Made by a program: the position numbers and the translations under genes
The notes under the pieces: generated by a model
The model's database searches: none
The model's input: only the letters and a program-made list of their open reading frames with translations
What the model was told of the DNA's origin: nothing
From: a virus
Reading direction: 5' to 3' (one strand)
DNA length: 18,619 nt
IMG/VR virus record: IMGVR_UViG_3300045988_026978
Part shown: piece after piece, positions 1,602-18,619 of the stretch
Layout: each line of letters starts with the position of its first letter
How positions within the stretch are numbered: position 1 is the stretch's first letter

Positions 1602-2669
1602 CTATTTTCCTAGCAATTCTCCAATGATTAGTCCAAAATCAGCTTTTACTTGTGAATCATCGAATCGTATTTTACCCAGCCGATAGCCGGTGGTGAGTCT
1701 CCGTATAATGTCATCCGATTTTTTGACGTACCATGTTTTTTCGTCAACATGGTTCGGGTCGAGCGTGTAGACGGGGCGATTATTGTCTTTTGGAATGCGC
1801 CGTGAAACATATTGTGAAACGTGTCCATCGCGTTCGGACACGGAAACCCAAATACCGAATCGCGCGTAGTCGGTAGTGTCCAAGATGTAGGATAGTTCGC
1901 CGTCACTAGGGATGGGCGCTAGCAACGTGTCCGATTCGTCTCGGAATTTGTTTCTGATCGCATAGTCGGCGTAATCGCCGTCGTACTGCTCAAGGAACCG
2001 TCCGAACTTTGATTGTGCGACTTTGGCTGAGAATCCGCCATAGTCGGCCAATTCGAGACATACGAATCCACTGCAATACAGCTTGTATTGTTGTTGATTG
2101 GTTTGCTGTGCGCCAATGTCAAGCCGGTATTTGGCGAAATATGGGTTAGCCTTTTGCACTGCGTTAGACAGAAACAGTACTTTTGTCCTATCCTGCCAAC
2201 GGTCTACCGTATTATAAAACTCAGAAAATGAGTTTACCTCATTACTTAAAAATCGTAGATTGTCGGGGAAAATTTCGTCGAAGATAATCAAGTGTACTTT
2301 CGGGTAGGCCACTGATTTCAATCCGCCCGCCTGTGACAATGCGACGAAATAACAGCATGTCCTCCAGTCCTTTTCGTCCCATGATGTCTTATGCACTTGC
2401 CCTTTTTCGCCATTCACGCGAAACTCGTATGAAGGGAAGAACTCTTGAATGTCTTTGAAGAAGGTTTCCTTGCGGTGTTGTTCCACGTCCGTACGCCTGA
2501 GATAGATGAACTCATGGCCGTGCTTAATGTACTCTTTTATGCCATATCTCTTTGCCGCAAATGTCTTGCCGAGTCCGCGTGCGCCGATCACGAAATTCCA
2601 TGGAGCGTTTCGGGTGAGCAGATTATGCAGATCATAATAGTCGTCTTCGGCCAATGTTTGCAATGCCAT
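1602..2669 (-). CDS. DNA encapsidation (packaging) ATPase, phi29 gp16-like, 355 aa
   Basis: Walker A GARGLGKT and Walker B HLIIFDE. The blocks NFVIGARG, FIYLRR and LSNAV..NPYF align by eye with phi29 gp16. RBS AGGAGGTGA. Confidence 0.95.
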   Translation of the reverse strand: MALQTLAEDDYYDLHNLLTRNAPWNFVIGARGLGKTFAAKRYGIKEYIKHGHEFIYLRRTDVEQHRKETFFKDIQEFFPSYEFRVNGEKGQVHKTSWDEKDWRTCCYFVALSQAGGLKSVAYPKVHLIIFDEIFPDNLRFLSNEVNSFSEFYNTVDRWQDRTKVLFLSNAVQKANPYFAKYRLDIGAQQTNQQQYKLYCSGFVCLELADYGGFSAKVAQSKFGRFLEQYDGDYADYAIRNKFRDESDTLLAPIPSDGELSYILDTTDYARFGIWVSVSERDGHVSQYVSRRIPKDNNRPVYTLDPNHVDEKTWYVKKSDDIIRRLTTGYRLGKIRFDDSQVKADFGLIIGELLGK

Positions 2670-2772: not shown

Positions 2773-2781
2773 ATTATATCA
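2773..2781 (-). promoter_or_regulatory. Extended -10 promoter TGATATAAT (minus strand)
   Basis: Reverse complement of attatatca. It lies immediately after the TAG stop (2784..2786) of the tail lysin gene and upstream of the ATPase-holin-endolysin block. Confidence 0.5.
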
Positions 2782-2783
2782 CA

Positions 2784-3995
2784 CTAGAATGCGGGTGGAT
2801 TCGATTTTCCATCCCACACACTCAACAATGAGTACGCCTGATTGTATCGATTCGCGTACGGCTGGAATGGGTACGTGCTCAGAATATTGTTTTTGAGCTG
2901 TGCGAGATTCGACGCCTTCGGCACCTTGAGCGCGTTCGCGGGTGATTGGTGGTATGCCGTAACCCATAGTATCTGCATTTTATCATCATCATACTGGTGC
3001 GGATATCCGACGTAGTCTTCGGCAAACTGCTTGCGCTGACCCTCATGGGATTCACTACGTGCCGCCCACGCTTGAAATGCCGCCGCCTCTGCCTGCGTGA
3101 GGCTCCGAGTAAACTCGCCCCCTGATTCCATGAGAGCCGCAATCTGCGGCGCGGCGGTTTTGAATGCCGTATAGCCGGTTGGGTCTGCCGTCTTCATGGC
3201 ATTCAACACTTGCAATCGGCGTCCGAAACTCCATTGTGCAATGCCGATACCCTGCAAGTTGGCCGCTTCTACCGCGTCCCAGCGCAAACCGGCTTCCACC
3301 GTGCCGACCACATAGAGGGCGTACGAGTTTTCCGTATTGAGTGAACTGGATGGGTGCCCTTGTCCTTGCGAGTCGGATGGTTGTCCTTGTGATGCTTTTT
3401 CCGAAAAATTGTTCGCCGTAGTCCTGTAGAAGATTCGGGTTCTTGCGCCGCTGTTGTCGGTTTCGTGAAGATAGAGATTATCTCCCTGCCAATGTATCCA
3501 CGCGCCCCCGCGTGCGGTGTCGGGGCGTCCCTGATTGTTATCGCCGGTCGGATTATCCACATCCGGCTTAGACATGGTACGGGGATGCAGATAACCCAAC
3601 AGTCCAGCGGTGGGGAACCATTTGAGGGCGCTGGCGTCCGGATTCTGGGTAATGATGTAAATACTGCCGTCTTTCACGCCATCTGCCGCGACTATCGCAA
3701 CATGCGTATAAGGGGTATATGTGCCGTATCCCCATATTGCCACGTCCCCAGCCACCGGCGAGTATCCATTGGCGGGAATGCGCTCGTATACTTGTTCGCA
3801 CCGTGCGGATACGGGGTATGCGGTATACAGTCCGCCCGCATAGCCGGTGGGGGTGATACAGTCCTGTATAGACATGCCGTACATATCCATACTGTATTTC
3901 GCCCACAAGTCCCAGCATTGCGCCCCGTACGCCCCGTCCATATCCCAGTATCGGTTTTTCGTCTGATCAATCCACTGCGAGAAAGTAATAGCCAT
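2784..3995 (-). CDS. Tail-associated peptidoglycan hydrolase: N-terminal CHAP plus C-terminal phage-tail-lysozyme-like domain (functional analogue of phi29 gp13), 403 aa
   Basis: The N-terminus is paralogous to the endolysin CHAP (DMDGAYGAQCWDLW; THVAIVA; GYLHPRT). The C-terminal part has TVEAG...GIGIAQWSFGRR, resembling lysozyme-like tail domains. Position is between the fibre gene and the ATPase, as for gp13. Confidence 0.75.
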   Translation of the reverse strand: MAITFSQWIDQTKNRYWDMDGAYGAQCWDLWAKYSMDMYGMSIQDCITPTGYAGGLYTAYPVSARCEQVYERIPANGYSPVAGDVAIWGYGTYTPYTHVAIVAADGVKDGSIYIITQNPDASALKWFPTAGLLGYLHPRTMSKPDVDNPTGDNNQGRPDTARGGAWIHWQGDNLYLHETDNSGARTRIFYRTTANNFSEKASQGQPSDSQGQGHPSSSLNTENSYALYVVGTVEAGLRWDAVEAANLQGIGIAQWSFGRRLQVLNAMKTADPTGYTAFKTAAPQIAALMESGGEFTRSLTQAEAAAFQAWAARSESHEGQRKQFAEDYVGYPHQYDDDKMQILWVTAYHQSPANALKVPKASNLAQLKNNILSTYPFQPYANRYNQAYSLLSVWDGKSNPPAF

Positions 3996-4029
3996 ACCAC
4001 CATTATAGCGATATGGCTATCATATGCCG

Positions 4030-4038
4030 ACTATATCA
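4030..4038 (-). promoter_or_regulatory. Extended -10 promoter TGATATAGT (minus strand) overlapping the fibre gene stop codon
   Basis: Reverse complement of actatatca. Its TGA is the stop codon of CDS 4036..5583. The 9-mer is identical to the ITR promoter. Confidence 0.45.
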
Positions 4039-5583
4039 CACTCCTGCGGGAATCATATAGGAGCCTACGAGAATGCCCGTATTGTCCAAATTTCCGGCGT
4101 TCTGGATGCTGAGCGTATTGTTGTCAATGGCTACGAATCCTTTGCCGTCGAAATTCGGGTAGAAATGGGGGTTGCCGATGGTTGCCCATTTCGGCAGTTT
4201 GAAGATACGGGCGGCATTGCTCGGCTTCGCGTTATAGTTGACTTTGAAGCCGATGGACAATATTCCATCATGCTCGTAGATGTTGACGTAATCCCATGTG
4301 CCGCTGATTTGGCTATCGCTTGGACCTCCGTAGTTCGTGGGCCATAGGTCGATACCTGCGGCGACGCAGTGGGCTATCCAATATCCGGCAAGCACGTATC
4401 CCCCACGGCTCAGGTGCGCACCGTCACCACCGTCACCACCGTCCGACGCTTGAGAAGCCACCACGCCGATACGGTATCCGCCCTCATGTACATGAATCCA
4501 GTCGAAACCTAAATCCTTCAAGTTGAGGGTCAATGCCTTCACGACTGCAAGACGGTGCGCCCTATCCGCGCCGTGGTTCTGAGTTTTTGTCAATGTTTGG
4601 CCGACTGCCAACACCATGGGGCAGACGTGGATTTCGGCGTTCGGCGCTTTCGCGTGGATGGTCTGCATGAGTTCGCGAGCCTTGGAGGTGATGACGGATT
4701 CACTGGTACGTTGCTGTTCGAGTCCAGTGGCGTCATTCTGTCCGCCGATGATAATCACGGCGGAAACCTTGCCCTTATCGGGTACGGTGTTCCAAATGTC
4801 GGCAAACGTCCCATCGTCACCGGATACGGCGAAACCTCCAGCCGAGGAACCCTTGTAGTAGAAGCGTTGTGGGCTGAGTTTTTCCTTGATGGCGACGGCG
4901 GGTGACTGGTCGATATGTTTCGCACCACCATAATATCCGTCCACCCAACTATCACCCAACACTACCACATAATCCTTGAGCTTGTCTGGGGTGTGGACGG
5001 CGTTGAGTGCGGCGGTGGCGTCCGTTGCGGCCTTGTCCCACTTGGATTTATTGGCGGTGGCGGTGCCGACTGTGTTGCTGCCAAGGGCGGTCAATGCCTG
5101 ATTATTGCTAGTAGCGGTGGTGGAAGCGGCATCCCACTTGGTTTTATTTGCGGTGGCGGTCGCGGTAGTATTGCTCCCGAGCGCGGTCAATGCCTGAGCG
5201 TTGCTATTGGCGGTGTCCACTGCCTTATTCCACTTGGTTTTTTGTGCGGCGGCATTGACGGTGGAATCAGCTCCGAGCGCGGTGAGCATTGCTGTGTTTG
5301 CATCGGCCTTGCTTGCGGCGGCTGCGGCGTCGATACCTGCTTTATCCCATTTGGTTTTCGACGCGGTTGCGTTGTCCACAGTGTTATCCACAAGCAGTGC
5401 CTTCATGACCGCTTCATCATGGGTTTCACGAGCTTCCACCGATTCGATACGATTCAAGTGCTGTCCCATTGTCGTGTCAATAGCGCGCATACTGCCGTTA
5501 TAGCCGTCGCGCAAGTCGGCGGGGTCGTTGTCGCCATACAGGTTCAATCCATAATTGTCGGTTTTCGTATATACTGTAGCCAT
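4036..5583 (-). CDS. Tail fibre/appendage protein with SGNH (GDSL) hydrolase domain, 515 aa
   Basis: N-terminal docking motif NYGLNLYGDNDPADLRDGYNGSMRAID. Four Ala/Thr-rich repeats containing K(T/S)KW. SGNH blocks LGDSW (I), IIIGGQNDA (III) and DGAHLS (V). Roughly 100-aa C-terminal domain. Confidence 0.8.
   Translation of the reverse strand: MATVYTKTDNYGLNLYGDNDPADLRDGYNGSMRAIDTTMGQHLNRIESVEARETHDEAVMKALLVDNTVDNATASKTKWDKAGIDAAAAASKADANTAMLTALGADSTVNAAAQKTKWNKAVDTANSNAQALTALGSNTTATATANKTKWDAASTTATSNNQALTALGSNTVGTATANKSKWDKAATDATAALNAVHTPDKLKDYVVVLGDSWVDGYYGGAKHIDQSPAVAIKEKLSPQRFYYKGSSAGGFAVSGDDGTFADIWNTVPDKGKVSAVIIIGGQNDATGLEQQRTSESVITSKARELMQTIHAKAPNAEIHVCPMVLAVGQTLTKTQNHGADRAHRLAVVKALTLNLKDLGFDWIHVHEGGYRIGVVASQASDGGDGGDGAHLSRGGYVLAGYWIAHCVAAGIDLWPTNYGGPSDSQISGTWDYVNIYEHDGILSIGFKVNYNAKPSNAARIFKLPKWATIGNPHFYPNFDGKGFVAIDNNTLSIQNAGNLDNTGILVGSYMIPAGV
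5014..5370 (-). repeat. Imperfect in-frame tandem repeats (about four units; spacings 96, 96 and 117 nt)
   Basis: CCCACTTGG-like cores at about 5037, 5133, 5229 and 5346 on the plus strand. They encode KTKWDKA / KTKWNKA / KTKWDAA / KSKWDKA with LTALG(A/S) segments. Confidence 0.85.
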
Positions 5584-6774: not shown

Positions 6775-7590
6775 CTAATGGCCGAGATTATAGGCGAGGG
6801 GTGTGCTGTAAAGTTGGGGTACGTTGATCATGTTGTCGCCACTGCCCCACATGCCCATAAACAAGTCTTCCAACGAGTTAATCACCATCATATCAATGTT
6901 GAGCATGGTATTCCGCCAATCAAGCAAAAGCTGGGATTGCGAACCACTCGTGCCGAGCGTATGTGAGGTGGAATTGCCCTTGTCGGAAGAGTGCGCATAG
7001 TCGGTGTTGCTGGTACTGGATGCCGTGGCGCTGCTGTCCTGCTGTGTGCTTGTATGCGTGTTGCCGAGCGAGTCGGTCTGTGACGCACTGGTGGCAAACT
7101 TGCGAAAATCATCGATACGGGTCTGAGGGAATTCCGAGTTGAACGTCATGCTGGAATTATCGGCGGTAGTGTCGGACGTGCTGTTTGCCGTGGATTCGTT
7201 TGACTGCGTGCCCGTGGATTTGCCGCTGGATTCGTTGGTGCTGGTCGAATCCATTTCCTGCCTGATGTCTGAGGTAATGAAGGGGTCGAACTTGCGTTGT
7301 GCAGACAAATAGAGCTGATTGTAATAGTCCATCTGCTCCCGCATGGTACGCCCCAAGTAGAACACGAACATTTGCGGTGTTTCCGAACCAATCTCACGTA
7401 GTGCGTAGTGGGCTACGATTTTCTCGTTCAATTTCGTCCTATAATTTTCGTCGAAAATCGGATAATATTGGGAGCTTAAATGTAGTTTTTTGTCCGTATT
7501 GAATCCACGGTCTATCAGATTGCCGAGCGTCAAGGTGTAGTCGGCCATGCTGTCTTTGATGGCATACATGCTCAAGTCTTGCGTCATCAT
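6775..7590 (-). CDS. Lower collar protein (phi29 gp11 position), 271 aa
   Basis: Immediately downstream of the portal gene with an ATGATGA start/stop overlap. Strong RBS AAGGAGGA. The call rests mainly on synteny. Contains a long S/T/N-rich segment (residues ~113-220). Confidence 0.55.
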   Translation of the reverse strand: MMTQDLSMYAIKDSMADYTLTLGNLIDRGFNTDKKLHLSSQYYPIFDENYRTKLNEKIVAHYALREIGSETPQMFVFYLGRTMREQMDYYNQLYLSAQRKFDPFITSDIRQEMDSTSTNESSGKSTGTQSNESTANSTSDTTADNSSMTFNSEFPQTRIDDFRKFATSASQTDSLGNTHTSTQQDSSATASSTSNTDYAHSSDKGNSTSHTLGTSGSQSQLLLDWRNTMLNIDMMVINSLEDLFMGMWGSGDNMINVPQLYSTPLAYNLGH

Positions 7591-8525
7591 TCTTCCTCCT
7601 TGTTGCCTTCCACGTCCAATAGACCACCGGACGTGGTGTCATTCCATTCAATGCCAATGGGATATCCCGAGTCGGCCATTTGCGGCCACAGTCGGTTGAT
7701 CGTATCGCAAGCCTGTTGACGTGCCTTAAGATAGCTCAGTCGGAACACGTTCGTTCGACTGTTGCCCGCCGTGACTTCCGATTCAAGCAACCGCTCCTTT
7801 TTTTCTGTAGTTGAGTTGTCGATGCCGAGATAATTGACTAATTCGTTCCAAATCTGGGTTTTCGTCGTGATGATCTTATCCGCCAAAAACGGCGTGACGT
7901 TCGGAAATGTCTGGAACATGCCGGTGATGTCGGCACTGTCATATGTGTAAATGTACGGGTCGCCGTCTTCCCTCGCCTTCATAAGATTCTGGGCGGTCAA
8001 TTTGTTGGTTTCGGACGTGGCGATAATCAACGGCACACTAATATTATCCAAATTCACGTCCAAAGCGCGGTCTGCAATAGCAAGGCGCGTGGCATAATTC
8101 CACATCACGTCAATCATTGTGCAACGCAGTTGGTTGTCCCAAATCGGCACGCATTCTTTCGAGCCGATCTGCGGGTGCGAATAATGGGTTGCCACCGGTT
8201 GGAATGAGGTTGGATTGTTATAGTTGTTCACGTCACCGATGTTGCCGGACGTGACCATGAAACGGTTAACGCCCTTGCGTTTGTCGGGGAAGAAGAGGGC
8301 TAGACCATTCTCGAATAGGGTGAGTTCCAAATATCTTTCATCGATATAAGGTGGTAGATTAATCCACTTGAACCGACTTACCGCCAACATTTCAATCAGC
8401 TTCATATATTGATTAATTCGTAAGCTTTGCCGCATTTCAGGCAGATTCAGATTACCCCACATGGAGCCTAAAACGCTCTGGTTGTCCCAGTGCGCGGCCT
8501 TGCGTGCGTTATTACGTTTACCCAT
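7587..8525 (-). CDS. Portal/upper collar (connector) protein, phi29 gp10-like, 312 aa
   Basis: FKWINLPPYIDERYLE and IWNELVNYLGIDNSTTEKKERLLESEV align by eye with phi29 gp10 (FEWENLPP...; [27 protein letters not shown]). I moved the start to the ATG at 8525 (RBS AGGA). The track's 8630 start would overlap the tail-knob CDS and run through a hairpin. Confidence 0.9.
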   Translation of the reverse strand: MGKRNNARKAAHWDNQSVLGSMWGNLNLPEMRQSLRINQYMKLIEMLAVSRFKWINLPPYIDERYLELTLFENGLALFFPDKRKGVNRFMVTSGNIGDVNNYNNPTSFQPVATHYSHPQIGSKECVPIWDNQLRCTMIDVMWNYATRLAIADRALDVNLDNISVPLIIATSETNKLTAQNLMKAREDGDPYIYTYDSADITGMFQTFPNVTPFLADKIITTKTQIWNELVNYLGIDNSTTEKKERLLESEVTAGNSRTNVFRLSYLKARQQACDTINRLWPQMADSGYPIGIEWNDTTSGGLLDVEGNKEEE

Positions 8526-8543
8526 AATCACCGTCCTATATAA

Positions 8544-8578
8544 ATAATGGAGAGAGTTTTCTTGACTCTCTCCATTAT
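8544..8578 (-). terminator. Strong stem-loop after the tail-knob gene
   Basis: 14-bp perfect stem (8544..8557 with 8565..8578) and a 7-nt loop. On the minus strand it is followed by ATTTATATAGG. The stem also contains AGATATAAT (8573..8581), a near copy of the promoter motif. Confidence 0.5.
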
Positions 8579-8580
8579 AT

Positions 8581-10815
8581 CTAGTATGCGATACCGCTGA
8601 GCGGCGCATTGTCCGCATAATCGGTGACACCGATCTTGTCGGGGTCAGTCCACACGGTTACGCCGCTTTCAAAAATGCCCTTGACGGTCAGTCGGTATTC
8701 TTCGGGGCATGTCGAACTACGTACGTACAACTCGTGCAATTTCCAGTACGTGAAATTAGACATTGCCATGAGATTTGATGGAAGTTGCATGAAGCGTTGC
8801 ACATAGTACCCGTAGCGCAGCCACACCTCGCCAATGGCGTGCATGGCGGCTGGCGATATTTGCCTGAAACGTACCATGACACCGATCAGCCCGTTAGCGA
8901 GGTTGAATGCATCACCTCCCAGAGCGCCGGACGTGGTCGGCGGTACGGTCTGAGTCTGCTGAACCTGCGCGTTGATCCCAGCAATCGTGTTTTCATAATC
9001 GCCTTGCGCCGTGGCTTGAGCCAGTTGTTTGTTCATATCGGCAAGCTGCATGGTCTGCTGATTGGACAGATTCGTTTGCGCAAGGGAAAAAGCGTTGGCC
9101 TGTGAGGTTGAGGCATTGTTCGTGGTCTGCGTGTTCGCCAATTGCTGGTTCGCGGTTGACACGTTGTTGTTGTAGGTCTGCTGATTTGTCCATGCGCCAA
9201 TCGCCGTGCCCGCTATGGCACCGGCCACACCCCCCATATTGCCGGTTACAGCGGCACCGGCGGCGTTTGCAATGCCCGATCCGATGGTGTTCAATTGCGC
9301 CATCTGATTGTTGAATCCAAGATTCTTCAACGTCAAATCGGTGCCCATTTGCGCTGATTGATTGCTGATCGCGTTCATGGCGTTTCGGTTCGACGCGCCG
9401 AGCCGGTTTTGCGCACTTGCGTACTGGGTGCCGAGCTGGGCTTGCGCGTAGGCGTTGTTAATGCCCATTTGAGTTTTCTGATATCCCCAGTCCGCACTTT
9501 GCTGGGCGTACTGGCGCGTATAGGCACTGTTTGCCAATGCTAACGCCGAGCCGTTATTGACGGCCATGAAGGTTGGAAAATTGGTGATGCCGAAGGATGC
9601 GTTGAGCATTTCGCCCGTATCGATAGGCAACCCGAGTCCGTTCGGCAATGGTTGGCGGTCTCCTAGACTGCCCGCATGATAACCCCTTGCATAAAAGTTC
9701 AATCGGGGGGAAGGGGGCGCGTAATTCCATGATTCACGGATAATCAAGTCAGCACTCGGGATCTGCTCAGGCTCATACGTGATCACGGTACCGTTCAGGC
9801 AACTGCATTCGATATAAGCATAAGGGGCGGTGAGGAACTTCTTCAAATACCTGTACCGTGCTGGGAGTTGGAATGTGTCACGAAAATTCTTAATATCGAT
9901 AATATCTGCATATCTATCGGAAGAATTTGCAACATTGCCTGTTAAAAGCCAGCACGCGCCCGACCATCGCACATCCTGTCCGAACAGTTTTGGATTTTTG
10001 ACGGCATGGTTTTCAAGCATTTTCGTTGGAATGGTCGGCACCATGTAAATTCCACAAATTCCTTGCGTAGCCCATGGTTTCGTAGACCCCGCCCCGAAAA
10101 ACTTGAAAATGTCGGATGTGTTGTCTAGATAGTATAGTTCCGTGCCGTTCATCTGGTTTTCAAACGTGCTTCCGGTGGCACTTTGTACGGTTGGGTTGTC
10201 TTTATTTCCCGCGTCGGCTTCCAGTTTTACCGTGGTGGCAATGATGATGCCATACGAGTATTCCGAGTTTGACTTAGCCCCCATCAATGGGTGCCATGAC
10301 TCATTCGTGAGCACGGTGCATTTGCCGGTGTCGAGTCCTTCGGGCAGATCAAGGTACGTTTTGCCATAGTCTTTCCATGCGTTTTCGTTGGCTACTCCTA
10401 CATGTCCGCGCTCTACGTAGGCGTTGCCGAGCTGGATATCGTGCTGGAATGATTGCCACACGTCCAGTTGGATATTCAATTGTGTCGTGTTGGCGTTGAT
10501 GTAATCGCATGTCTGGATGAAATAATACCAGCTGCGGGGGGTGTCGAAGTCGTAGTCGTTCGTGGCGATCAGGTAATTGTATTGGCACGCTTGCGCAAAC
10601 GGCACGGGCAGTCTCACGGGCAGACCATACTTGCTCATGGTGCAATTCGTGAACTCGATACCATTCAACCGGTCGAAATACTCTTTCTGGGATTGTTTAT
10701 CCCATTTGACGATATCCCGGTAGCCCATATCCCACGGCACATTACACAGCTTGAAGCGCGTGTTGGGCGTCCATTTCGCATACGAAAAATTGATGGGCAA
10801 ATCGTTTGCGCTCAT
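8581..10815 (-). CDS. Tail knob/distal tube protein, phi29 gp9-like, 744 aa
   Basis: The N-terminal block (WYYFIQ...LDVWQSF...ERGHV) and C-terminal block (LRYGYYVQR...IFESGVTVWTDPDKIG) align by eye with phi29 gp9 (HKYGYKINR...IFDNGITLWHTDNIG). There is an internal Gly/Ala hydrophobic loop. RBS AGGAGGG. Confidence 0.88.
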   Translation of the reverse strand: MSANDLPINFSYAKWTPNTRFKLCNVPWDMGYRDIVKWDKQSQKEYFDRLNGIEFTNCTMSKYGLPVRLPVPFAQACQYNYLIATNDYDFDTPRSWYYFIQTCDYINANTTQLNIQLDVWQSFQHDIQLGNAYVERGHVGVANENAWKDYGKTYLDLPEGLDTGKCTVLTNESWHPLMGAKSNSEYSYGIIIATTVKLEADAGNKDNPTVQSATGSTFENQMNGTELYYLDNTSDIFKFFGAGSTKPWATQGICGIYMVPTIPTKMLENHAVKNPKLFGQDVRWSGACWLLTGNVANSSDRYADIIDIKNFRDTFQLPARYRYLKKFLTAPYAYIECSCLNGTVITYEPEQIPSADLIIRESWNYAPPSPRLNFYARGYHAGSLGDRQPLPNGLGLPIDTGEMLNASFGITNFPTFMAVNNGSALALANSAYTRQYAQQSADWGYQKTQMGINNAYAQAQLGTQYASAQNRLGASNRNAMNAISNQSAQMGTDLTLKNLGFNNQMAQLNTIGSGIANAAGAAVTGNMGGVAGAIAGTAIGAWTNQQTYNNNVSTANQQLANTQTTNNASTSQANAFSLAQTNLSNQQTMQLADMNKQLAQATAQGDYENTIAGINAQVQQTQTVPPTTSGALGGDAFNLANGLIGVMVRFRQISPAAMHAIGEVWLRYGYYVQRFMQLPSNLMAMSNFTYWKLHELYVRSSTCPEEYRLTVKGIFESGVTVWTDPDKIGVTDYADNAPLSGIAY

Positions 10816-12938: not shown

Positions 12939-12947
12939 ATTATATCA
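12939..12947 (-). promoter_or_regulatory. Late-operon promoter, perfect extended -10 TGATATAAT (minus strand)
   Basis: Reverse complement of attatatca. It lies about 37 nt upstream of the scaffold ATG (12902) and immediately downstream of the terminator at 12955..12987. Confidence 0.65.
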
Positions 12948-12954
12948 TGCGGCG

Positions 12955-12987
12955 AGAAAATAAATGACCCCGCAATCACGCGGGGTC
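12955..12987 (-). terminator. Intrinsic terminator (minus strand)
   Basis: GACCCCGC (12966..12973) pairs with GCGGGGTC (12980..12987), a GC-rich 8-bp stem with a 6-nt loop. On the minus strand ATTTATTTTCT follows. Confidence 0.8.
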
Positions 12988-13127
12988 TAGACTGTCTTAT
13001 GTGAGCGCAAAGTGAAAATCGTAGGGCACTACCGCCACGATAGTGATGTTCACGGTCGGCGGCATTCTCAGCCGTGGCAGTCCGACCCACGTTATCCCCA
13101 GTCGAAAATCGACGCTCAGAAGACAAT
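12955..13127 (-). ncRNA. Candidate structured ncRNA of ~170 nt (pRNA-like packaging RNA hypothesis)
   Basis: Bounded by the extended -10 TGCTATAAT (13132..13140) and the terminator at 12955..12987. No credible ORF. Hand-paired end-to-end helices and complementary loops are detailed in the findings. Ends are approximate. Confidence 0.4.
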
Positions 13128-13131
13128 AGAC

Positions 13132-13140
13132 ATTATAGCA
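13132..13140 (-). promoter_or_regulatory. Extended -10 promoter TGCTATAAT (minus strand) overlapping the polymerase stop codon
   Basis: Reverse complement of attatagca. The TAA inside TATAAT is the stop codon of CDS 13133..14584. The identical 9-mer occurs at 15644..15652. Confidence 0.5.
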
Positions 13141-14584
13141 TGACCATTGTTCCGTAATCATCCACAACCTGCGCGCCATGCCGGAATTGCTCGTACGGAA
13201 TAGGGTGCGAAAACATATTTCCGGCCATACATACGTCAACCTCGCCATCATCCCGCCACCCCTGATACCGGTTCATGCCGAGTATGGTCAATTTTTCGTA
13301 CCGTGCGGCGATCTTCCATTTGCCAAGTTCGGTCGGGTGAATGTCACATGATTTCACCGGCTCCCAACCGCTCAAAATACACCCGTCCGTGTTCGCATAC
13401 AGTAGCCGATCTGAGTTTGCATGGCATACGGTCATAAGCTTGCGACGCGCGTAGGCGTTGACCCATACGGGTACGGGGAGAAAGTCGGTTTTCAAATTCG
13501 ATTCTTCACGTTGTGCCACATCCCAGTCCAATGTTATGCCGTCTTTGGAGGTAGGGAGCATGACGACACCCTTGGGTAGACTCGCCATTTTCCCCACGAG
13601 AGCATTCATGATCAGTTTCGCCATCTGCCGTTTTTCGCCCGTCGCCTTCTGTTTCAGTTCCCCCCATTCATCCACGAACGAGCGGAAAAAGCCTTTGGAG
13701 CGGCGGAATTTCCAGCCGCGCACATACTTGTATACGCTCACTTCATAATTGTCATACAGTAGTTGTTGGTCAATGTCGGTTAATACGCGCGTAATGTAGC
13801 CACGGGTGGAAGTGAGCCTATTCAGTCCGTAGATACTGCGATTGTCGAGCAGAAAAGGGTATCCGTCCGGTTTGAGTTCCGCTCGAAATGTGAGTTCGTC
13901 ACAATGCAACGGCATATCGTTATCCTCTTCGTATTTGCCTTCATATTGTTCGGGTTCACCCCATGGGAGCCATTCATCCCGTAGTATGGACGGATACATG
14001 GAATTGCAGTCAACGTCGATAGCTTTGCCGTACATGCCTTCTTTGGCGGTCATGAATCCGCCGATATAGGCATCATGCAGTGACTTTTTAGTTTCGGATT
14101 CTAATTGTGGGAATTTGTCGTAATACCATTTCCACTCGCCGGACGCGAACGCTTCCATGCTTGCCCCGCCCGCCGTAATCTTACATAAGCCGTGGGTTTC
14201 ATATTCGCGCAGAATGTTAAGCAATTGGGCGTCGGTCATGGTAAGACGGCAGTTTTCACGTAAAAGATTCGATATGTCGAAAAAGCGTGCGGAATTTTCG
14301 CGGTCAATCCGCACGGTGAAGCTGAAAAATTTTCCCTTTTTCGAGATGATGGCGTCCCAGCTCAGGGTTGCGTTGTGCTCGTTATGGGGAAGGAAGTGCA
14401 CGACGTGCGCCATAAACGGGTCTAAAATATCGGGGTCAGTCACGTAGACGGTGAGTTTGCCGCACGACATGATGGACGCCAAAAGGCGATTAGGGGCGGT
14501 AATATCACGCAGCGCGGTACCGTCCGTAAAGCGTATGACGTTATCCGCACACCATAATCCCACCCTATTGTCTTGCACTGTCAT
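13133..14584 (-). CDS. Protein-primed family-B DNA polymerase, phi29 gp2-like, 483 aa
   Basis: YIGGF (YxGG), VDCNSMYP (motif A), KLIMNALVGK (motif B-like) and YANTDG (motif C-like). LPWGEPEQYEGKY and MPLHCDELTFRAELKPDGYP align by eye with phi29 LPYGEPIVFEGKY and YPLHIQHIRCEFELKEGYIP. RBS AGGGAAG. Confidence 0.92.
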   Translation of the reverse strand: MTVQDNRVGLWCADNVIRFTDGTALRDITAPNRLLASIMSCGKLTVYVTDPDILDPFMAHVVHFLPHNEHNATLSWDAIISKKGKFFSFTVRIDRENSARFFDISNLLRENCRLTMTDAQLLNILREYETHGLCKITAGGASMEAFASGEWKWYYDKFPQLESETKKSLHDAYIGGFMTAKEGMYGKAIDVDCNSMYPSILRDEWLPWGEPEQYEGKYEEDNDMPLHCDELTFRAELKPDGYPFLLDNRSIYGLNRLTSTRGYITRVLTDIDQQLLYDNYEVSVYKYVRGWKFRRSKGFFRSFVDEWGELKQKATGEKRQMAKLIMNALVGKMASLPKGVVMLPTSKDGITLDWDVAQREESNLKTDFLPVPVWVNAYARRKLMTVCHANSDRLLYANTDGCILSGWEPVKSCDIHPTELGKWKIAARYEKLTILGMNRYQGWRDDGEVDVCMAGNMFSHPIPYEQFRHGAQVVDDYGTMVML

Positions 14585-15643: not shown

Positions 15644-15652
15644 ATTATAGCA
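15644..15652 (-). promoter_or_regulatory. Extended -10 promoter TGCTATAAT (minus strand) upstream of the TP-polymerase genes
   Basis: Reverse complement of attatagca, 3 nt after the SSB TAA stop (15656..15658). Confidence 0.5.
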
Positions 15653-16159: not shown

Positions 16160-16474
16160 CATGCCGTCATTATTTTCAATGTCGGCGTGTCGTTTGTTTG
16201 TATGTTCTTCGGGGTTCCATTCCTGAGGTTCTTCAAAAGTCGCATACTTGTAAAAAGTCTCCTCATTCATAGAAACTTTTTGTGAAAAAATGTTGATAGA
16301 ACGTGGAATGAAATTCGGAAACAGTTTTTTGGCACGAATCGAATACGCGCGTGTATCCTTCAAACGTCCGTCAATGACGTGCTCGGCTTCCATAAAATCG
16401 CCGTCAACCAATTCCATGCCTTTAAGGACGGCATAGACGCGGGTTCTGAAAATGTCGGTTTTGGTTCTAGCCAA
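16157..16474 (-). CDS. Possible p6-like double-stranded DNA-binding (histone-like) early protein, 105 aa, TTG start
   Basis: TTG start 5 nt after GGGAGG. Size, position just upstream of the SSB, basic N-terminus, VDGD block and acidic C-tail resemble phi29 p6 (104 aa). Sequence similarity is weak and judged from memory. Confidence 0.4.
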   Translation of the reverse strand: MARTKTDIFRTRVYAVLKGMELVDGDFMEAEHVIDGRLKDTRAYSIRAKKLFPNFIPRSINIFSQKVSMNEETFYKYATFEEPQEWNPEEHTNKRHADIENNDGM

Positions 16475-18019: not shown

Positions 18020-18376
18020 TCAGTGCTCCTCACTAAGTTCAACCAACTCATACCTATCACCTTTGACCATATCAAACCGACCGAGCTTAAACCCATAGTC
18101 AGCGAGATAATCATTAGCGGAAGCCTCCCAATCAAGGCCACAGACAACCCCGCAAATACCAGTAACCCTCTCTGCATCAACATCATGATATAAATCGTAA
18201 TCATCGCCAACCCAAGGGTCAAAATACCAAGTATCATCACCAGTTTGTTGCCACATGCCTAAACCAGTAAGATTGTCAGCAAATATCAACGAAGTCCAGC
18301 CATCATCACCTCTAACAGCAACCAACTCGGCCGGTATTTCTTTATCGGTGTGAACGTCAACCCCTATTATGTTCAT
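18020..18376 (-). CDS. Hypothetical highly acidic immediate-early protein, 118 aa
   Basis: ATG at 18376 preceded by the ITR-borne GGGAAGGAAA RBS and promoter. By my count it has 26 D/E versus about 7 K/R. No recognisable domain. Confidence 0.75.
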   Translation of the reverse strand: MNIIGVDVHTDKEIPAELVAVRGDDGWTSLIFADNLTGLGMWQQTGDDTWYFDPWVGDDYDLYHDVDAERVTGICGVVCGLDWEASANDYLADYGFKLGRFDMVKGDRYELVELSEEH

Positions 18377-18381
18377 TTTTA

Positions 18382-18619
18382 TTTCCTTCCCTTGAAGTTG
18401 ATAACTATATCATAACACAAACAAACGGACGACACACCCAAAAACAAAACAAAGCAAAACACTAAAAGACAGTTGCCAACCGGTCGGTAAGCTACGGTTA
18501 CGTAACCGTAACTTAGCAATAATTAGACAACAAGAGTTAACCCAGTTAACCAATACCACAACGAAACCTGTTGCACATACAACCATTGACACAGTGTCAA
18601 TAAAAAAAATAAGCGACAC
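18382..18619. repeat. Right inverted terminal repeat (ITR), 238 bp
   Basis: Perfect reverse complement of 1..238 and ends at the last base of the window. The two 69-aa ORFs in the track (1..210 + and 18410..18619 -) are identical because of it. Confidence 0.97.
18404..18412 (-). promoter_or_regulatory. Extended -10 promoter TGATATAGT inside the right ITR, reading inward
   Basis: Mirror copy of 208..216, about 28 nt upstream of the ATG at 18376. Confidence 0.55.

Follow-up and report, generated by a model that had tools for sequence, protein, structure and literature searches.

A predicted prohead-RNA-like gene between the polymerase and capsid genes of a Bifidobacterium phage

Our analysis of the genome of a small phi29-like Bifidobacterium phage (IMG/VR record IMGVR_UViG_3300045988_026978; the 18,619-nt stretch analysed here is referred to as the window) revealed a conserved, unannotated structured RNA of ~170 nt, encoded on the minus strand between the DNA polymerase gene and the capsid genes. 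Its covariation-derived fold matches, element for element, domain I of the prohead RNA (pRNA) that phi29 uses to dock its DNA-packaging motor, an RNA so far demonstrated only in Bacillus phages. The unit at 12955-13140 is self-contained and non-coding, with a conserved extended -10 promoter overlapping the polymerase stop codon, a multi-helix RNA of ~131 nt and the strongest intrinsic terminator in the genome (Table 1). We propose that it represents a probable new pRNA family, with a role in packaging that is inferred from sequence and structure alone.

Table 1. Features of the RNA gene and its inferred partners (window coordinates)
Positions	Strand	Feature	Evidence
13132..13140	-	Extended -10 promoter TGCTATAAT of the RNA, overlapping the last codons and the TAA stop (13135-13133) of the DNA polymerase gene	-10 positions invariant in 84 relatives; same overlap kept in Bad-like phages; conserved G13124 lies 6-8 nt downstream of the hexamer in all relatives and is the inferred transcription start
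12994..13124	-	Domain I, ~131 nt, 5' GUCUU to AAGAC 3': A helix, three-way junction, C/E arm and D arm	Covariance model from 84 relatives scores 151 bits here and 94-154 bits in 90 loci
13097..13124	-	A helix, 5' strand: GUCUU (13124-20), GAGCGUCGA (13117-09), UCG (13105-03), GGG (13099-97)	Segments pair with 12998-94, with 13008-03 plus 13015-13, with 13021-19 and with 13026-24; compensatory G-C to A-U in 10-12 sequences at A3 columns 15/131; C.A <-> U.G at 17/123; UUU/UUU internal loop fully paired in the divergent locus L085
12994..13026	-	A helix, 3' strand: CCC (13026-24), CGA (13021-19), UCA (13015-13), GCGCUC (13008-03), AAGAC (12998-94); 4-nt bulge at 13012-09	As for the 5' strand
13082..13091	-	C helix, 5' strand: CGU (13091-89), bulged G13088, GGUCGG (13087-82)	Pairs with CCGACC (13059-54) and GUG (13053-51); changes on both sides at 4 of 6 inner and 2 of 3 outer pairs (e.g. 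40/79: UA 41, UG 20, CG 15)
13075..13081	-	CE-type bulge ACUGCCA, 7 nt, on the 5' side only; GCCA (13078-75) complementary to the D loop	Covariation of pair 53/99 (see text)
13060..13074	-	E hairpin CGGC-UGAGAAU-GCCG, 4-bp stem and 7-nt loop, no nucleotide between it and the 3' strand of the C helix	Nearly invariant in all relatives; geometry matches phi29/Nf CUGA-UUGAGU-UCAG and GA-1 UACU-GUAAAA-AGUA
13051..13059	-	C helix, 3' strand: CCGACC followed by GUG	Base-pair counts in the alignment
13027..13045	-	D hairpin CACUAUC-GUGGC-GGUAGUG (13045-13039 with 13033-27); loop UGGC (13037-34) complementary to the CE bulge; abuts the A-helix CCC with no spacer	Changes on both sides at 6 of 7 stem pairs; 99.8% of cells paired
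12955..12987	-	3' hairpin doubling as intrinsic terminator (GACCCCGC-GUGAUU-GCGGGGUC, 12987-12966) plus U-rich tail (12965-12955); positional analogue of pRNA domain II	Top-ranked terminator in the genome scan, 9 pairs, 7 of them G-C; stem covaries (e.g. CG 54, UA 20), loop CGUGAUUG invariant
12939..12947	-	Second extended -10 (TGATATAAT), late promoter for the 94-aa ORF, major capsid and downstream genes; context only, makes the RNA a separate transcription unit	Sequence, conservation in relatives and promoter counts
1602..2669	-	gp16-like packaging ATPase, inferred protein partner docking on the A helix	PHROG 2150, E = 8e-60; residues 11-341 align to residues 6-318 of phi29 gp16 (PDB 7JQQ), E = 1.2e-36
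7587..8525	-	gp10-like connector, inferred docking site on the prohead; likely start ATG at 8525, N terminus MGKRNNARK	PHROG 2038, E = 6e-54; phi29 gp10 (PDB 1H5W), E = 6e-28; basic N terminus aligns with phi29 MARKRSN

The unit was first pointed out in an earlier note made from the sequence alone, and the observation holds: every sequence feature listed there is present at the stated coordinates. Besides the promoter and terminator, these are the complementary segments AUUGUCUU/AAGACAGU, GAGCGU/GCGCUC, GGUCGG/CCGACC, CGGC/GCCG with loop UGAGAAU, and CUGCCACG/CGUGGCGG, as well as the octamer CGAUUUUC, duplicated at 13111-13104 and 13021-13014. These features exceed chance expectation. The promoter motif TGNTATAAT occurs four times, always on the coding strand, against 0.51 expected, and none of 200 shuffles reached four. 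The 176-nt transcript folds at -68.8 kcal/mol (z = -4.13), with none of 200 shuffles as good. Two features had been missed by the note, namely the D hairpin, which has the strongest covariation in the RNA, and the fact that the two CGAUUUUC copies pair with each other inside the terminal helix.

Several lines of evidence indicate a real, selected, non-coding RNA. More than 100 related gut-virome phages carry the unit, and its mean pairwise identity (0.80-0.84) is as high as that of the flanking coding DNA (0.74-0.86). No ORF is conserved: region lengths fall in all three classes modulo 3 (36/26/22), 1-2-nt indels are frequent, including between close relatives, and the median longest stop-free stretch is 30-37 codons. 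The alignment supports 52 base pairs, with 94.6% of cells paired against 35-46% when the partners are slid; 26 pairs show changes on both sides, and none of 500 shuffles reached the observed values. The element was not found in one representative genome of each of 185,579 bacterial and archaeal species (GTDB), where the two pattern hits are partial chance matches.

The consensus fold, supported by covariation in 84 sequences, has the same topology as domain I of the phi29, Nf and GA-1 pRNAs. The ends are closed by a bulged A helix leading to a three-way junction, the C helix is interrupted by a single bulged base (1 nt also in phi29 and GA-1, 2 nt in Nf), and the bulge preceding the E stem lies on the 5' side only, with 7 nt here and 6-9 nt in the Bacillus pRNAs. 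The E stem is 4 bp with a loop of 6-7 nt and no nucleotide on its 3' side, and the D hairpin abuts the A helix. A core descriptor written from these features recovers the pRNAs of phi29, Nf and B103 as well as this locus, and only 10 of 2000 composition-matched shuffles of the RNA match it, although the three-way-junction shape is common among RNAs and the descriptor yields about 1.65 chance hits per strand of a shuffled genome. The bulge (GCCA) and the D loop (UGGC) are complementary, with the pairing bases at the 3' end of the bulge as in phi29 (AACC/GGUU). Pair 53/99 (alignment columns) within this contact reads G-C 115, G.U 14 and A-U 10, with no mismatch among 139 alignment rows. Every A53 comes with U99, in the relatives' loci designated L003, L079, L083, L096/L128, L120/L121, L132, L141 and L176. 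The pair covaries in about eight sequences from several lineages; between the close relatives L085 and L096, the contact changes from GCCG/UGGC to ACCA/UGGU.

Deeper relatives keep the same plan. In Bad-like phages, whose polymerase is ~31% identical to that of this phage and 41-91% identical to that of BadAargau2, the promoter overlap, the closed ends, the 5'-only bulge, a fully covarying C helix and the bulge complementarity are retained. Their E hairpin has loop UUAAGU, UUAGGU or UUGAGU, the last being identical to the phi29/Nf E loop, whereas their D arm could not be defined with confidence from eight sequences. Among more distant phages, LE1-1 has no gap after its polymerase gene, and MT835826, MT835861 and MT835873 were retrieved but not resolved.

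The genomic context is that of a phi29-like phage, with a protein-primed B-family polymerase assigned to PHROG 1907, 244-bp inverted terminal repeats, a gp10-like connector, and an ATPase homologous to gp16 along its full length, including the C-terminal domain. Phi29 gp16 depends on the pRNA for attachment to the procapsid (PMC7672431). The RNA gene lies downstream of the polymerase gene on the same strand, at the 3' end of the early replication gene block and with its own promoter, as in phi29 (promoter A1) and GA-1 (promoter A1b).

In conjunction, these data lead us to propose, with reasonable though not full confidence, that this is the pRNA gene of a Bifidobacterium phi29-like phage. In this model, host RNA polymerase starts at G13124, from the promoter embedded in the end of the polymerase gene, and stops at the 12987-12966 terminator to give a ~170-nt RNA, the first ~131 nt of which fold with paired ends into a long, bulged A helix, a three-way junction, a C/E arm and a D hairpin. 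By analogy with phi29, copies would join head to tail through base pairs between the bulge of one molecule and the D loop of the next, building a ring on the connector end of the empty prohead, and the protruding A helices would then dock the gp16-like ATPase, which would pump the protein-capped genome into the head. Our analysis establishes the transcription signals, the fold, its conservation and the covariation of the bulge/loop pair, whereas ring formation in trans, binding to the prohead and the ATPase, and any role in packaging are inferred; binding and a packaging role have only indirect support, from the homology to gp16 along its full length and the basic connector N terminus, and there is no experimental evidence for a transcript, for prohead association or for a packaging role. 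The bulge/loop complementarity can extend to 8 bp, and hence an intramolecular pseudoknot is not excluded. The junction strands are also longer than in the Bacillus pRNAs (about 5 and 5 nt after the C-helix extension, against 0-3 nt).

Homology with the Bacillus pRNAs rests on architecture, synteny and a short loop motif rather than on a statistical sequence or structure match. The Rfam pRNA model (RF00044), which the note had suggested as a check, gives no match here at the gathering score or at E <= 10. This model is too narrow to exclude membership, as it scores 145 bits on phi29 but only 47-50 bits on Nf and B103, against a cut-off of 100, and does not find the GA-1 pRNA, annotated as required for DNA packaging, at E <= 1. 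Conversely, our covariance model of the relatives found nothing in phi29, Av-1 or Bad phages; with an effective sequence number of 1.23, it is too sequence-specific. A general Bacillus pRNA model from phi29, Nf, B103 and GA-1 was abandoned because MAFFT could not align GA-1. No other Rfam family and no tRNA or tmRNA was detected.

The note's interpretation as a candidate pRNA-like packaging RNA is thus supported in part: its central idea holds as far as computation can take it, but two specifics do not. The proposed contact between the loop hexamer GAGAAU and AUUUUC receives no support, since the loop change U to C in 26 of 84 sequences is never compensated, the 3' AUUUUC copy varies freely, and both copies are paired to each other in the A helix. 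Instead, the helix CUGCCACG/CGUGGCGG, which the note regarded as an alternative or pseudoknotted 8-bp helix, is the counterpart of the phi29 CE-loop/D-loop pairing. The note also held that the location differs from that in phi29, which, given the shared position downstream of the polymerase, is not really the case. Two elements of the single-sequence minimum free energy fold were likewise rejected. The local hairpin GUCGA-UUU-UCGAC is broken by G15 to A in 12 sequences, a change compensated in the long-range A helix. The helix CUGCCACGG/CCGUGGCGG, taken as an ordinary nested helix, would exclude the C and D helices, which carry the strongest covariation, and only its 4-6 central pairs are kept, as a tertiary or kissing contact.

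Could the RNA serve another purpose? A trans-acting function other than packaging is conceivable but unlikely, for instance a decoy or regulator binding a host or phage protein, or a base-pairing small RNA made at the switch from early to late expression. The separate promoter and terminator, the invariant loops UGAGAAU and CGUGAUUG, and the absence of a cross-match with either pRNA model would be compatible with such a role. However, this reading explains neither why the fold reproduces the pRNA blueprint nor why a bulge and a hairpin loop covary as a pair; moreover, a phage with a phi29-type ATPase is expected to need a docking RNA, and no other candidate was found in the genome.

We consider somewhat less likely still a cis-acting leader of the late operon, promoting terminator read-through in the manner of the lambda PR'-6S-tR' unit or the HK022 put RNAs, or stabilizing or regulating the late mRNA. 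The RNA sits immediately upstream of the scaffold-like and capsid genes, and in the Bad-like relatives it is followed by a GNRA-capped hairpin with no U tract and no second promoter, so that there it would be the 5' leader of the late mRNA, which fits a cis-acting role equally well. In this phage and about 100 relatives, in contrast, a strong terminator and a separate, conserved TGATATAAT promoter cut the RNA off from the late genes while the fold is nevertheless conserved and covaries, arguing for action in trans. That the region merely comprises the polymerase-operon terminator, spacer DNA and the late promoter, or a small protein gene, is very improbable. The terminator would also end polymerase transcripts and computed ORFs overlap the region, but this reading is contradicted by conservation as strong as that of coding DNA, by covarying pairs outside and inside the terminator, and by frame-breaking indels between close relatives, with no frame staying open.

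What would be the relevance of a pRNA-type molecule in these phages? A 2024 review states that pRNA-dependent packaging is a feature of phi29 and related Bacillus phages (PMC11476376), and covariance models have failed to find pRNAs in other genera (PMC6266182). A covariation-supported pRNA-type RNA in Bifidobacterium phages would extend the only known RNA-containing DNA-packaging motor to phages of another bacterial phylum and would bear on whether the RNA is ancestral or a late recruit, a question raised previously (PMC7672431). It would supply more than 100 natural variants for studying which parts of the RNA matter, including G+C-rich three-way junctions and kissing pairs of interest for RNA nanotechnology, and would fill an unannotated gap in BP1, BD811P1-3 and many gut-virome genomes; as BP1, on B. 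pseudocatenulatum U19, and the BD811P phages, on B. dentium DA811, are in culture, the hypothesis is directly testable. We further speculate, as a possibility about as likely as not, that pRNA is an ancestral component of the phi29-type packaging motor, vertically inherited in phages of Actinobacteria. The Bifidobacterium RNAs would then be true homologs of phi29 pRNA, as suggested by the gene position after the polymerase, the C/CE/E/D blueprint and the UUGAGU E loop retained in one lineage, and would form a large, G+C-rich, naturally diverse family with more than 100 members in human gut viromes and with culturable hosts.

The closest known system is the phi29 pRNA, likewise encoded by a small protein-primed podophage and made as a ~170-nt primary transcript consisting of a ~120-130-nt domain I and a 3' hairpin domain, with the 3'-terminal 4 nt of its CE bulge pairing with the D loop and a 4-bp E stem stacked on the C helix. 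The RNA described here has no detectable sequence similarity to it, is G+C-rich (54%), has a 7-nt (UGAGAAU) rather than a 6-nt (UUGAGU) E loop, and its gene lies next to the late operon because early and late genes are on one strand. The GA-1 pRNA gene is internal to the genome, downstream of the polymerase, with its own promoter and terminator, and the RNA has a 6-nt bulge, a 4-bp E stem, a 6-nt E loop and a D hairpin of 6-8 bp with a G-rich GUGG-type loop. In GA-1, however, three small ORFs (M-O) separate the polymerase and pRNA genes, which are contiguous here, and the kissing complementarity is weak (PMC4201828; no 4-bp match in our searches), whereas here it is strong. The lambda PR'-6S RNA-tR' unit and the HK022 put RNAs share a promoter, a short non-coding transcript and a terminator placed directly ahead of the late genes, but they act in cis on the transcribing polymerase and need read-through, and the closed A helix, three-way junction and covarying bulge/loop pair have no known counterpart in them. 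Putative pRNAs have also been claimed for phi29-like phages of non-Bacillus hosts, including Cp-1 (PMC6266182) and Actinomyces phage Av-1 (misc_RNA 16295-16402), which infects an actinobacterium. The Av-1 annotation overlaps ORFs on the other strand, folds no better than shuffled sequence (z = +0.5) and has no comparative support, while the RNA studied here is supported by covariation in more than 100 genomes.

The sequence is a complete phi29-like genome of 18,619 bp, bounded by inverted terminal repeats of 244 bp that are 99% complementary and far longer than the 6-bp repeats of phi29. All long genes lie on the minus strand, and PHROG matches identify a B-family polymerase, a major head protein, a gp9-like tail protein, an upper collar connector, a lower collar protein, an endolysin and a gp16-type 'terminase'. 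Residues 11-341 of this ATPase align with residues 6-318 of phi29 gp16 (PDB 7JQQ, E = 1.2e-36), and the connector aligns with phi29 gp10 (PDB 1H5W, E = 6e-28). The nearest database phages are Bifidobacterium phages BP1 and BD811P1-3 and a faecal scaffold, which are 73-86% identical across the region; in all of these records the ~230-bp gap after the polymerase gene carries no annotation.

An earlier note, made from the sequence alone, had described this gap as a promoter-to-terminator non-coding unit, and its observation holds: all motifs and coordinates that it gave are correct. The extended -10 motif TGNTATAAT occurs four times in the genome, always on the coding strand, against 0.51 expected, and 0 of 200 shuffles reach four. 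The four boxes lie ahead of the 320-aa gene upstream of the polymerase, the RNA, the late genes and the ATPase gene, and hence the ATPase appears to have its own promoter. The hairpin at the 3' end of the unit, with its U-rich tail, heads the terminator scan, and the 176-nt transcript folds at -68.8 kcal/mol (z = -4.13). The RNA is not a tRNA or tmRNA, and it matches no Rfam family at the gathering threshold or at E <= 10. The note's interpretation, a candidate pRNA-like packaging RNA with a specific loop contact, is partly supported, as the loop contact it proposed does not find support in the alignment.

The element is conserved and phage-specific. A polymerase-based scan of IMG/VR returned 93 relatives, of which 80 were retrieved, and all of them carry the element. 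A scan with a pattern derived from the RNA core found 94 viral contigs, and R1, a covariance model of the RNA, scores 94-154 bits once per locus in 90 loci. In contrast, only two partial chance matches occur in one representative genome from each of 185,579 bacterial and archaeal species. Mean pairwise identity in the RNA region (0.80-0.84) equals or exceeds that of the flanking coding DNA (0.74-0.86). Region lengths fall in all three classes modulo 3, indels of 1-2 nt separate close relatives, and no reading frame stays open, which excludes a conserved small protein. The -10 positions are invariant across 84 distinct sequences, and the first conserved base after the promoter, G13124, lies 6-8 nt downstream of the hexamer in every relative. 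This makes G13124 the inferred transcription start, which is exactly the first base of the terminal helix.

RNAalifold, a mutual-information scan and explicit pair counts on the 84-sequence alignment (A3) converge on one fold, whose elements are listed in the table together with the other features of the genome.

Features of the phage genome and elements of the consensus RNA fold
Feature	Position	Strand	Detail
Inverted terminal repeats	1-244 and 18376-18619		
gp16-type 'terminase' (ATPase)	1602-2669	-	
Extended -10 box	2773-2781	-	TGNTATAAT
Second match to the loose pRNA core descriptor	3988-4040	-	gap between the 515-aa ORF and the endolysin gene
Upper collar connector	7587-8630	-	as listed; likely start is the ATG at 8525
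Extended -10 box	12939-12947	-	TGNTATAAT
Terminator hairpin	12987-12966	-	followed by a U-rich tail; loop CGUGAUUG
A helix	13124-20/12998-94	-	
A helix	13117-09/13015-13 plus 13008-03	-	4-nt 3' bulge (13012-13009)
C.A or U.G pair in the A helix	13111 and 13013	-	next to the 4-nt 3' bulge
A helix	13105-03/13021-19	-	across a UUU/UUU internal loop
A helix	13099-97/13026-24	-	
C helix	13091-89/13053-51	-	
Bulged G	13088	-	between the two parts of the C helix
C helix	13087-82/13059-54	-	
7-nt bulge	13081-75	-	ACUGCCA, 5' side only; GCCA at 13078-75
E hairpin	13074-60	-	CGGC-UGAGAAU-GCCG; loop at 13064-13070
D hairpin	13045-39/13033-27	-	loop GUGGC; UGGC at 13037-34
Extended -10 box of the RNA	13132-13140	-	TGCTATAAT; contains the polymerase TAA stop
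B-family polymerase	13133-14584	-	
Extended -10 box	15644-15652	-	TGNTATAAT

Over the 52 pairs of this fold, 94.6% of cells form standard pairs, against 35-46% when the partners are slid by 1-3 columns. Twenty-six pairs show changes on both sides, against 13.4 in shuffles, and no shuffle out of 500 reaches any observed measure. Changes on both sides are seen in six of seven pairs of the D stem and in six of nine pairs of the C helix. The divergent locus L085, whose polymerase is 67% identical, rewrites the helices and keeps them paired: GAGCGU/GCGCUC becomes AAGUAU/AUACUU, GGUCGG/CCGACC becomes UAUCGG/CCGAUA, and the UUU/UUU internal loop becomes a paired stretch. Within the A helix, the alignment columns for bases 13111 and 13013 read C.A in 65 sequences and U.G in 15, the pattern expected for a wobble-geometry pair. 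The terminator stem also covaries (for example C-G 54, U-A 20), but its loop is invariant in 84 sequences, suggesting that the 3' hairpin does more than terminate transcription, perhaps as a protein or RNA contact, like the conserved but unexplained domain II of pRNA. The single-sequence MFE differs from the consensus for one reason, namely that the bulge and the D loop are so complementary that the folding program turns them into a nested helix.

GCCA in the bulge is complementary to UGGC in the D loop, and this pairing covaries. Across the two alignments (139 rows, with some loci counted twice), the outer pair reads G-C 115, G.U 14 and A-U 10, with no mismatch, and every A in the bulge is accompanied by U in the loop, in the relatives L003, L079, L083, L096/L128, L120/L121, L132, L141 and L176. 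The sister genomes L085 and L096 differ by GCCG/UGGC against ACCA/UGGU. The neighbouring pairs are invariant C-G, C-G/U.G, and A-U, the A-U pair being broken in about 13 of the 139 rows. In contrast, the contact between loop GAGAAU and AUUUUC that the earlier note had proposed is not supported: the loop U->C change occurs in 26 of 84 sequences and is never compensated, the 3' AUUUUC copy drifts (UCUUC, UCAUC, UUGUC), and both copies face each other in the A helix. The E loop exists as two alleles, UGAGAAU in most sequences and UGAAAAC in about 24 of 84. Two positions change together, and no covarying partner was found elsewhere in the RNA; the partner may be a protein.

More distant relatives carry a related RNA at the same position. 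The honeybee-gut Bifidobacterium phages BadAargau2 and BadAztec1 have polymerases about 31% identical to that of this phage, and six metagenomic relatives (L195-L200) were reached through their polymerase, which is 41-91% identical to that of BadAargau2. All keep a 170-180-nt gap at the same place, at 13051-13229 in L086 and 12680-12857 in L087 (the Bad-like phages, both minus strand) and just after the polymerase gene in L195-L200, although in L195 the called gap is longer and contains a run of N. The gap contains a GTGYTATRRT box overlapping the polymerase stop, an RNA that opens UGAGC and closes GCUC, and an invariant hairpin CGUA-UU(A/G)(A/G)GU-UACG preceded by a 5-6-nt bulge on the 5' side only. 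The C helix covaries fully and is completely rewritten between lineages (GGUG/CACC, AGCG/CGCU, GACG/CGUC, ACGUG/CGCGU, UGUGGUGG/CCAUCAUG and CUGCCG/CGGCAG), and the bulge is complementary to a segment 6-14 nt beyond the C helix (ACC/GGU, ACACC/GGUGU, CACGA/UUGUG, AUGU/ACAU and CACA/UGUG). In L199 the hairpin loop is UUGAGU, identical to the phi29/Nf E loop in the same structural position. The D arm of these RNAs could not be defined. In them an 11-12-bp GNRA-capped hairpin without a U tract, and no second promoter, precede the late genes, so that there the RNA would be the 5' leader of the late mRNA. In Eggerthella phage LE1-1, a more distant actinobacterial phi29-like phage, the polymerase gene overlaps the next gene and no gap exists (3900-5300); if it has such an RNA, the gene lies elsewhere.

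In conjunction, these analyses establish a conserved transcription unit, a covariation-supported fold with the pRNA blueprint, a covarying bulge/loop pair, and the presence of the two protein partners. Beyond this, we infer that the RNA multimerises in trans through GCCA/UGGC, that its C/E/D half binds the connector end of the prohead, and that its A helix docks the ATPase. The connector N terminus MGKRNNARK aligns with phi29 MARKRSN, a segment that binds pRNA in phi29. For the ATPase, PMC7672431 shows that the gp16 C-terminal domain binds the A helix and that the pRNA is the main link to the procapsid.

The main rival reading is a cis-acting leader of the late operon, as suggested by the arrangement in the Bad-like phages. 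In the clade studied here, however, a strong terminator and an independent conserved promoter separate the RNA from the late genes while the fold stays under selection, which points to action in trans.

Within the searchable literature, pRNA is described as specific to phi29 and related Bacillus phages (PMC11476376), covariance models failed on Cp-1 (PMC6266182), and the BP1 paper does not mention such an RNA. The GenBank 'packaging RNA' of Actinomyces phage Av-1 (16295-16402) overlaps ORFs on the opposite strand and folds no better than shuffled sequence (z = +0.5). The Av-1 gap between pol/ORF7 and the late genes (4471-4611) folds with z = -4.1 and ends in a strong terminator, and may be the better place to look for an Av-1 RNA. 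We therefore regard the Bifidobacterium phage RNA as a probable, previously undescribed pRNA, on comparative evidence alone.

How does this RNA compare with the known pRNAs? We retrieved the phi29, Nf, B103 and GA-1 sequences and folded their 120-nt pRNAs, with the Rfam alignment supplying the curated phi29 structure. Shared with the RNA described here are ends closed by a bulged A helix; a C helix with a bulged base (1 nt in phi29 and GA-1, 2 nt in Nf); a bulge on the 5' side only, of 9, 7 and 6 nt in phi29, Nf and GA-1 and 7 nt here; a 4-bp E stem with a 6-7-nt loop and no nucleotide on its 3' side; a D hairpin that abuts the 3' strand of the A helix; and, except in GA-1, a 4-bp complementarity between the 3' end of the bulge and the D loop (AACC/GGUU in phi29, UAUC/GAUA in Nf, GCCA/UGGC here). 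A descriptor written from these features recovers the pRNAs of phi29, Nf and B103 as well as this locus, and 10 of 2000 dinucleotide shuffles of the RNA satisfy it. Since it also gives about 1.65 chance hits per strand of a shuffled genome, it serves as a consistency check and not as a discovery statistic, and its second match in this genome is probably chance. Rfam RF00044 does not match the sequence, but the same model scores Nf and B103 at only 47-50 bits (cut-off 100) and misses the GA-1 pRNA altogether; likewise, our model R1 does not detect phi29 or Bad-phage RNAs. The junction strands are longer here than in the Bacillus pRNAs, while three-way junctions are reported to differ dramatically among bona fide pRNAs (PMC4201828). 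Synteny also agrees: in phi29 and GA-1 the pRNA gene lies downstream of the polymerase on the same strand with its own promoter, and in GA-1 it is internal to the genome and followed by a terminator.
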